IMG/VR virus record: IMGVR_UViG_2695420643_000008
Coordinates: 1 to 5,987 of that record
DNA length: 5,987 nt
Source: a virus
Taxonomy: Duplodnaviria > Heunggongvirae > Uroviricota > Caudoviricetes
Reading direction: 5' to 3' (one strand)
Shown here: piece by piece, positions 2,715-2,964 of the stretch
Layout of the letters: every line of letters starts with the position of its first letter
How positions within the stretch are numbered: position 1 is the first letter of the stretch
Program-made: the position numbers and the translations under genes
The notes under the pieces: model-generated
Databases searched by the model: none
What the model was told of the DNA's origin: nothing
Seen by the model: the letters and a program-made list of their open reading frames with translations, nothing else

Positions 2715-2790
2715 GGCCCTTTAGCTCAGTGGTGAGAGCGAGCGACTCATAATCGCCAGGTCGCTGGTTCAAATCCAGCAAGGGCCACCA
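2715..2790 (+). tRNA. ileZ: tRNA-Ile2 (anticodon CAU, lysidine type; tRNAscan would probably report Met-CAT), ileX/ileZ-like
   Basis: 76-nt cloverleaf folded by hand: acceptor GGCCCTT/AAGGGCC, D-arm GCTC/GAGC, anticodon loop CTCATAA (CAT at 2748-2750), T-arm GCTGG-TTCAAAT-CCAGC, encoded CCA. Sequence is close to E. coli ileX as I recall it. The gene name is taken from the Stx-phage ileZ-argN-argO cluster and is an inference. Confidence 0.9.
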
Positions 2791-2797
2791 TCACATA

Positions 2798-2874
2798 CCG
2801 CCATTAGCTCATCGGGATAGAGCGTCAGCCTTCGAAGCTGGCTGTGCGGGGTTCAAGTCCCCGATGGCGGTCCA
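2798..2874 (+). tRNA. argN: tRNA-Arg (anticodon UCG)
   Basis: 77-nt cloverleaf: acceptor CCGCCAT/ATGGCGG, D-arm GCTC/GAGC, anticodon stem TCAGC/GCTGG, loop CTTCGAA (TCG at 2832-2834), T-arm CGGGG-TTCAAGT-CCCCG, encoded CCA. Gene name by analogy to Stx-phage clusters; uncertain. Confidence 0.85.
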
Positions 2875-2887
2875 TTATCAGCATCAT

Positions 2888-2964
2888 GCGTTGTTAGCTC
2901 AGTCGGACAGAGCAATTGCCTTCTAAGCAATCGGTCACTGGTTCGAATCCAGTACAACGCGCCA
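2888..2964 (+). tRNA. argO: tRNA-Arg (anticodon UCU)
   Basis: 77-nt cloverleaf: acceptor GCGTTGT/ACAACGC, anticodon stem ATTGC/GCAAT, loop CTTCTAA (TCT at 2922-2924), T-loop TTCGAAT, encoded CCA. Gene name by analogy; uncertain. Confidence 0.9.

Follow-up and report, generated by a model that had tools for sequence, protein, structure and literature searches.

The window studied here is a 5,987-nucleotide stretch of viral DNA (Caudoviricetes; IMG/VR record IMGVR_UViG_2695420643_000008, positions 1 to 5,987) that carries three tandem tRNA genes at positions 2715-2964. These genes, with the promoter and the terminator that flank them, almost certainly constitute the ileZ-argN-argO operon of lambdoid prophages, of the type found in Shiga-toxin phage 933W. 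The operon is probably a backbone element that provides a general supply of decoding capacity for A-ending rare codons and that is not adapted to the cargo genes next to it. This supply function is less certain than the identity of the operon, its fitness benefit being one that we infer. Both the tRNA module and the rare-codon rationale were already known.

The ileZ-argN-argO operon

ARAGORN and the Rfam tRNA model agree on three forward-strand genes, which follow each other in the order CAU, UCG, UCU on the strand of the late genes. They are ileZ (tRNA-Ile2, anticodon CAU, 2715-2790; Rfam tRNA 72.5 bits), argN (tRNA-Arg, anticodon UCG, 2798-2874; 55.9 bits) and argO (tRNA-Arg, anticodon UCU, 2888-2964; 71.7 bits). 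A first, sequence-only reading of the window had placed the tRNAs at 2715-2964 with these anticodons, both exact by ARAGORN, and had taken the CAU tRNA for Ile2. The label Met that ARAGORN attaches to the CAU tRNA was rejected on the similarity of the gene to ileX of Escherichia coli K-12 and on pairs 4 and 5 of its acceptor stem. Note that ileZ is identical to ileX at 68 of 76 positions and to metT at 54 of 78, and that its acceptor stem (GGCCCTT/AAGGGCC) forms the pairs C4-G69 and C5-G68 as in ileX, whereas metT has U4 and A5. The CAU tRNA is accordingly assigned to the Ile2 (ileX) type. Both pairs are said to be determinants for TilS, reportedly from work of Ikeuchi et al. in 2005. The ileZ gene encodes its own CCA, and the tRNA would read AUA after lysidine modification of C34, this modification and the charging with Ile being predicted. 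Annotation of ileZ is unstable: the identical sequence is labelled tRNA-Ile by the Prokaryotic Genome Annotation Pipeline (PGAP) in three genomes, while a copy of the same body in E. coli MS7163 (locus L007, 7039-7114), which carries a C32 to T change in the anticodon loop, has the PGAP label tRNA-Met.

The two Arg tRNAs cover different codon boxes. Anticodon UCG of argN is predicted to read CGA and probably CGG, and argO AGA and, more weakly, AGG. To our knowledge K-12 has no tRNA with anticodon UCG, CGA being read there through the inosine tRNA (ICG). Every stem pairs in the window copy of argN, which has discriminator U73 and first pair C1-G72. The argO gene is identical to K-12 argU at 57 of 77 positions and has the same anticodon loop, CTTCTAA. 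Substrates of arginyl-tRNA synthetase carry A20 in the D-loop and C35, and the E. coli isoacceptors have a purine as their discriminator (position 73). A20 and C35 are present in both argN and argO; argO has G73, and argN has first pair C1-G72 and, in 28 of 31 distinct copies, U73. The host genes ileX/ileY and argU have the same anticodons as ileZ and argO and identical anticodon loops; unlike them, the phage tRNA genes are prophage-borne and multi-copy.

The 933W record (NC_000924) lists, in this order, Q, pR', qut, two terminators, a 'pT; putative tRNA promoter', ileZ, argN, argO, a rho-independent terminator, stx2AB, a YjhS-like esterase gene and the lysis genes. Window positions 2677-3003 are identical to the 933W segment from pT through ileZ, argN and argO to the terminator at 313 of 329 positions (76/76 in ileZ, 72/77 in argN, 75/77 in argO). 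One of the differences is position 37 of argO, which is A in the window and G in 933W. The two phages share the genes, their order and strand, pT, the terminator, an upstream methylase remnant and the pR' leader. Every sequence-level hallmark of the 933W-type operon is found in the window, and the arrangement departs from 933W in its flanks only. The cargo slot that holds stx2AB in 933W is occupied here by a gene for 74 amino acids, a gene for 69 amino acids and TerB/DUF3927 genes; Q is another allele (123 amino acids, PF06530) and is separated from pR' by a WYL gene. The ileZ-argN-argO genes of 933W were reportedly described by Plunkett et al. in 1999 (J Bacteriol). A search for ileZ/argN/argO and for 933W rare codons found nothing in the literature covered, and the naming follows the 933W GenBank record and secondary citations.

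The putative tRNA promoter pT (2677-2705, forward strand), of the sigma-70 type, was placed by homology with 933W. It consists of TTGCAG (2677-2682), a 17-nucleotide spacer, TATTAT (2700-2705) and the GC-rich discriminator CCTGCGCCC. A consensus promoter scan called neither pT nor pR', which was also placed by 933W homology; the -35 hexamer of pT agrees with the consensus at only 3 of 6 positions, which explains why the scanner skipped it. A transcription start in lysogens of the Sakai strain drives the tRNAs from their own promoter (PMC7547250), and by analogy the window copy of pT is expected to be active. Since this promoter is active in lysogens of Stx2 phage, the tRNAs are not tied to induction. 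The operon is closed by an intrinsic terminator on the same strand (2978-3003; GGCTCGC-TTTT-GCGGGCC followed by a T-run), which was found by a terminator scan and corresponds by homology to what the 933W record calls a 'possible rho-independent terminator upstream of the stx genes'.

The following course of events is proposed. In the lysogen pT would transcribe the tRNA operon constitutively, and after induction Q-modified polymerase coming from pR' would read through it. RNase P and 3' trimming would release three tRNAs with CCA already encoded, host TilS would turn C34 of ileZ into lysidine to allow Ile charging and reading of AUA, and the Arg tRNAs would read CGA (and CGG) and AGA (and AGG). 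The net effect would be more capacity, in lysogens as well as after induction, for A-ending codons that E. coli decodes poorly. The beneficiaries would be two classes of genes that over-use these codons, the late genes of the phage and acquired genes of high AT content.

Codon usage of the neighbouring genes

The sequence-only reading had claimed that the trio decodes exactly the rare codons enriched in the adjacent cargo genes, an enrichment that should exceed what AT bias alone predicts, and that it may support translation of this specific cargo during induction, as proposed for stx. Its codon counts were all exact. The WYL gene, which it called the moron (1574-2191, forward strand; 205 amino acids, AT-rich, with a G+C content at third codon positions (GC3) of 0.32-0.34), uses AUA for 6 of 14 Ile codons and AGA, AGG or CGA for 10 of 12 Arg codons. 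The 69-amino-acid gene (3332-3541, forward strand) has no Ile, and its three Arg codons are all of the rare kind (2 AGA, 1 CGA), while the Arg codons of the TerB gene (3731-4162, forward strand) are 6 CGT, 2 CGC and 2 CGA, that is 8 of 10 CGT or CGC. The frequency of cognate codons in the WYL and 69-amino-acid genes speaks for a trio matched to these two genes and kept for their translation. The gene nearest to the tRNAs is a different case: the 74-amino-acid gene (3055-3279, forward strand) has AUA at none of its 5 Ile codons and CGT as its sole Arg codon. In addition, the WYL gene over-represents UUA (7/14 Leu), GGA (7/16 Gly), ACA (6/10 Thr) and GUA (7/16 Val) as much as AUA; none of these four has a tRNA in the window. 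Since these four codons are equally enriched and the 74-amino-acid gene is devoid of the cognate codons, the word "exactly" was an overstatement.

The codon bias of the neighbouring genes was compared with a host baseline of 217 open reading frames (ORFs; 69,745 codons) from 250 kb of K-12 picked to include AT-rich islands. Three nulls were used, namely GC3 bins, a quadratic logistic model and the base composition of the gene itself. A linear logistic null was dropped; it predicts too few rare codons where GC3 is low and had returned a spurious P=0.024 for the Arg codons of the WYL gene. In the K-12 sample rare codons climb steeply with falling GC3, reaching 0.34 for AUA/Ile and 0.67 for (AGA+AGG+CGA)/Arg at GC3 0.30-0.35. 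The position-specific base composition of the WYL gene predicts 0.41 for AUA against 0.43 observed (P=0.55), and 0.70 for AGA/AGG/CGA against 0.83 observed (P=0.26). The 16 K-12 genes at the same GC3 average 0.32 for AUA and 0.64 for rare Arg codons (P=0.26 and 0.14, respectively), and the quadratic model gives P=0.20 for AUA and P=0.06 for rare Arg. Enrichment above AT bias was thus not found, so that the proposed link to the cargo does not pass the test that the sequence-only reading had set for itself, and the match between the trio and the WYL and 69-amino-acid genes follows from their AT-richness.

Pooling of the three cargo genes gives AUA at 6 of 19 Ile codons against 5.4 expected (P=0.47), and rare Arg codons at 13 of 16, where GC3-matched host genes would give 8.3 (P=0.013). 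The latter figure favours retention of the trio for this cargo, but it equals the 1.5-1.7-fold excess of lambdoid genes in general and is lost against that background (P=0.49-0.93). A further point for a link with cargo comes from other phages with stx2A in the same slot: of the 20 Ile codons of stx2A, 15 are AUA where its GC3 would predict 3.1, and stx2A is the single strong outlier among slot genes (locus L093 and six other IMG/VR loci; L012, 2463-3422). The decoding relation as such is real; the same idea has been published for stx2, and stx2A is a true outlier, but its extension to the cargo of this window fails the composition null. A Stx1a phage was considered as a further example of the trio and rejected, as it has no tRNAs; it serves as a counter-example, its rare-codon-rich stx1A (AUA 7/21 Ile, AGA/AGG 10/27 Arg) being carried without any array. 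Homology with 933W would place pR' at about 2262-2295, with the WYL gene between Q and this promoter and so outside the late transcript that includes the tRNAs. Transcription of the tRNAs in lysogens (PMC7547250) also argues against a dedication to cargo expressed at induction. On this balance we regard it as very unlikely that the trio is matched to the WYL and 69-amino-acid genes and maintained for their translation during induction.

Distribution of the array and codon supply to phage genes

A search of 5426 complete E. coli genomes found homologs of the trio in 3062, of which 2578 reach a coverage of at least 80%; a single genome has up to 13 such places. Of the 5426 genomes, 52 have the WYL gene and 93 the full-length block of the 74- and 69-amino-acid genes. 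The trio, some 30-60 times as widespread as either of these cargo blocks, occurs with many cargos or with none, an additional argument against its retention for one of them. In the closest genomes it is followed directly by TerB or nanS-p, without the small genes between. No complete E. coli genome has the whole window, the best coverage being 85%, and the window is a mosaic of common modules.

Array variation was analysed in 120 IMG/VR loci (L015-L134) collected by a pattern in the anticodon arm of ileZ. The array types are cat-tcg-tct (58 loci), cat-tct (29), cat-ttt-tgt-tcc (13), cat-tct-tgt-tcc (6) and rarer forms. The variants add anticodons UUU (Lys), UGU (Thr) and UCC (Gly), so that all anticodons of the arrays read codons ending in A. 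The anticodons UCC and UGU of the variants read GGA and ACA, which are among the most over-used codons of the WYL gene. The distance from the last tRNA to nanS-p in these loci ranges from 488 to about 3600 nucleotides, and the slot holds stx2AB, TerB, the 74/69-amino-acid pair, other ORFs or nothing; distances down to 488 nucleotides imply that many prophages have no cargo in the slot.

The five cognate codons occur 222 times in the 25 late genes (6328 codons, GC3 about 0.65) of a related, fully annotated prophage that bears the array, and 17 times in the WYL gene. Relative to GC3-matched K-12 genes these late genes over-use AUA 3.4-fold (z=9), AGA 2.9-fold, AGG 3.3-fold, CGG 1.9-fold and CGA 1.3-fold, the excess of AUA, AGA and AGG lying at z=6-9. 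In 56 de-duplicated clusters of slot ORFs the excess is 1.8-fold for AUA and 1.7-fold for rare Arg codons (1.5-fold and 1.7-fold when stx is left out). A control is offered by tRNA-less loci that share a DUF968 gene at an identity of at least 99%. After correction for composition, the de-duplicated gene clusters found only in tRNA-bearing loci exceed those found only in tRNA-less loci in AUA (1.86 vs 1.15) and AGA (2.00 vs 1.49); CGA does not differ.

Several observations weigh against a supply function. The late genes of lambda, a phage without tRNA genes, over-use the same codons (AUA 1.9-fold, AGA 1.9-fold, AGG 2.5-fold, CGG 1.9-fold, CGA 1.15-fold), and CGA exceeds expectation in phage genes by just 1.25-1.3-fold. 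In raw terms the tRNA-less prophages that share the DUF968 gene use the codons as often as the others (AUA/Ile 0.187 vs 0.185, rare Arg 0.37 vs 0.28), the fractions in tRNA-bearing loci being equal or lower; the tRNAs are therefore not required. The argN gene is degenerate in about a quarter of the arrays. Genes outside annotated loci were called by a longest-ORF heuristic, the tRNA-less controls may represent few lineages, and no functional test of ileZ, argN or argO was found in the literature searched. Taken together, codon compensation is supported for AUA, AGA and AGG and weakly for CGA, and is not indispensable.

The codon use of lambda and of the tRNA-less relatives would also fit a largely neutral passenger, a conserved stretch of about 330 bp that persists through its place within the late operon, offers homology for exchange of the downstream cargo and brings little translational benefit. 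Prophages that differ on both sides of the unit are still 93-100% identical within it, and argN has decayed in many copies. The cat-tct arrays retain a degenerate argN remnant. Among 28 distinct sequences of intact argN in register, 6 have the mismatch A-A at pair 6-68 and 6 have A·C at pair 53-63. The decay of argN, together with the slight over-use of CGA, indicates weak selection on at least this gene. The other two genes tell against neutrality. Among 24 distinct copies of argO, 98.6% of the stem cells are canonical and compensatory changes affect 13 pairs, a covariation that indicates clear selection for tRNA structure. The ileZ gene is identical in 103 of 118 copies; note that the search pattern lay inside ileZ. 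Compensatory change in argO and near-invariance of ileZ point to purifying selection on tRNA structure, and the dedicated promoter and terminator are conserved. A mere passenger role is therefore considered improbable.

The activity of pT in lysogens and the presence of up to 13 array places per genome led us to consider that the operon acts mainly for the host. The prophage load would then tune the capacity for A-ending rare codons across the AT-rich mobilome (effectors, islands and the cargo of other prophages), with the Lys-UUU, Thr-UGU and Gly-UCC variants of the array as alternative kits, and might perhaps provide a spare tRNA pool against colicin D-like toxins. Colicin D cleaves Arg tRNAs. 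We consider a mainly host-directed role unlikely. A reserve against defence, in which the phage tRNAs replace host tRNAs cut or depleted by tRNA-targeting toxins or defence nucleases, appears to us a slim prospect. Escape from such nucleases is established in other phages according to the passage of PMC13015707 that cites van den Berg et al. 2023, and some ileZ-anchored arrays include tRNA-Lys(UUU), which reads AAA, not a rare codon, and is a classic target of anticodon nucleases. However, the altered anticodon loop that is the hallmark of escape is absent, the loop of ileZ (CTCATAA) being that of ileX and the loop of argO that of argU. No tRNA-targeting system was detected in the window by PADLOC, and the A-ending codons read by all array anticodons are better explained by codon supply.

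General codon supply thus remains the reading that we prefer, and it has precedents. Phage tRNAs match codons used more by the phage than by its host according to Bailly-Bechet, Vergassola and Rocha 2007, as far as the citing statement in PMC7946995 conveys. The present phage differs from those in being temperate and in having three tRNAs only, and its codon excess is shared by tRNA-less lambda, which makes the relation weaker than in large virulent phages. In the lambdoid or P22-like phages SfI, Sf6, ST64T and p21 tRNA genes likewise lie just past Q (PMC3636060). They code tRNA-Asn (GUU) and tRNA-Thr (UGU) and not the Ile2/Arg/Arg trio; codon compensation was proposed for them too, and ACA is over-used in SfI (PMC3636060). 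A tRNA with anticodon UGU is common to some ileZ-anchored arrays and to the SfI-type phages.

Gene context of the operon

The trio lies inside the late operon, after Q, pR' and tR' and ahead of the cargo slot, which is itself followed by nanS-p and the genes for lysis. Related prophages have the same order; the window is assigned to the Q-to-lysis segment of a lambdoid prophage. The late antiterminator gene Q (1127-1498, forward strand; 123 amino acids) matches Pfam Phage_antitermQ (PF06530, 162.5 bits) and RefSeq 'antiterminator Q family protein'. The next gene is annotated by RefSeq as 'WYL domain-containing protein', its product reaching 16.5 bits with Pfam WYL, which is under the gathering threshold. 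An RNA hairpin of 15 bp (1538-1571, forward strand; free energy -26 kcal/mol, z=-5.25) precedes it and contains in its 3' arm the GGGAGG Shine-Dalgarno sequence of the WYL gene (ATG at 1574). This hairpin could terminate transcription of Q or occlude translation. The Stx1a phage Stx1_14040 (locus L011, 316-2423) has three hypothetical genes on the reverse strand at the place of the WYL gene, between Q and the leader of pR', and the gap from Q to pR' looks like a second cargo slot.

The StxS-like leader of pR' (2296-2552, forward strand) has 217/264 identity to 933W and includes a promoter-proximal terminator (2318-2345) and tR' (2521-2552). StxS is described in PMC7547250; pR', qut and the terminators are marked as features in the 933W record. 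The -35/-10 region upstream of the leader differs from 933W, as does the Q allele. An ORF listed at 2249-2485 is probably no gene. Positions 2553-2676 are what is left of the 3' end of a DNA methyltransferase gene, which related prophages have in intact form (714-1065 bp); pT is located at the end of this remnant, and 933W carries the same one.

The 74-amino-acid gene lies directly 3' of the tRNA terminator, and has an AGGAGG Shine-Dalgarno sequence and a GTG start. Genomes with the block list its product as a hypothetical protein, and neither Pfam nor PADLOC gave a match to it. The 69-amino-acid gene has a weak match to DUF7336, under threshold, and the TerB-family gene codes a TciA-like protein (Pfam TerB, E=1.7e-16). 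Pfam and PADLOC gave for the cargo genes only the sub-threshold WYL and DUF7336 matches, and no defence-system context that would tie cargo to the tRNAs. A strong match to the small RNA family STnc100 of Rfam (4334-4503, forward strand; 102 bits, E=3e-22) is located between the DUF3927 gene and nanS-p, with a terminator after it at 4528-4546; it is found together with the trio, TerB and nanS-p in IMG/VR loci. The 5' part of nanS-p (4641-5987, forward strand; DUF1737 and SASA esterase domains), identified by Pfam and by the annotation of related prophages, is the first backbone late gene past the cargo slot.

A trio specific for its cargo would have meant that morons co-evolve with a dedicated decoding module, and would have offered a rule to predict which prophage genes are expressed at induction. 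The evidence points instead to a standard module of the phage backbone, with stx2A, and not the cargo of this window, as the real AUA outlier. The quantitative null further indicates that codon matches of the kind seen here are expected for any AT-rich E. coli gene. Finally, the frequent degeneration of argN implies that the three tRNAs are unequally maintained.

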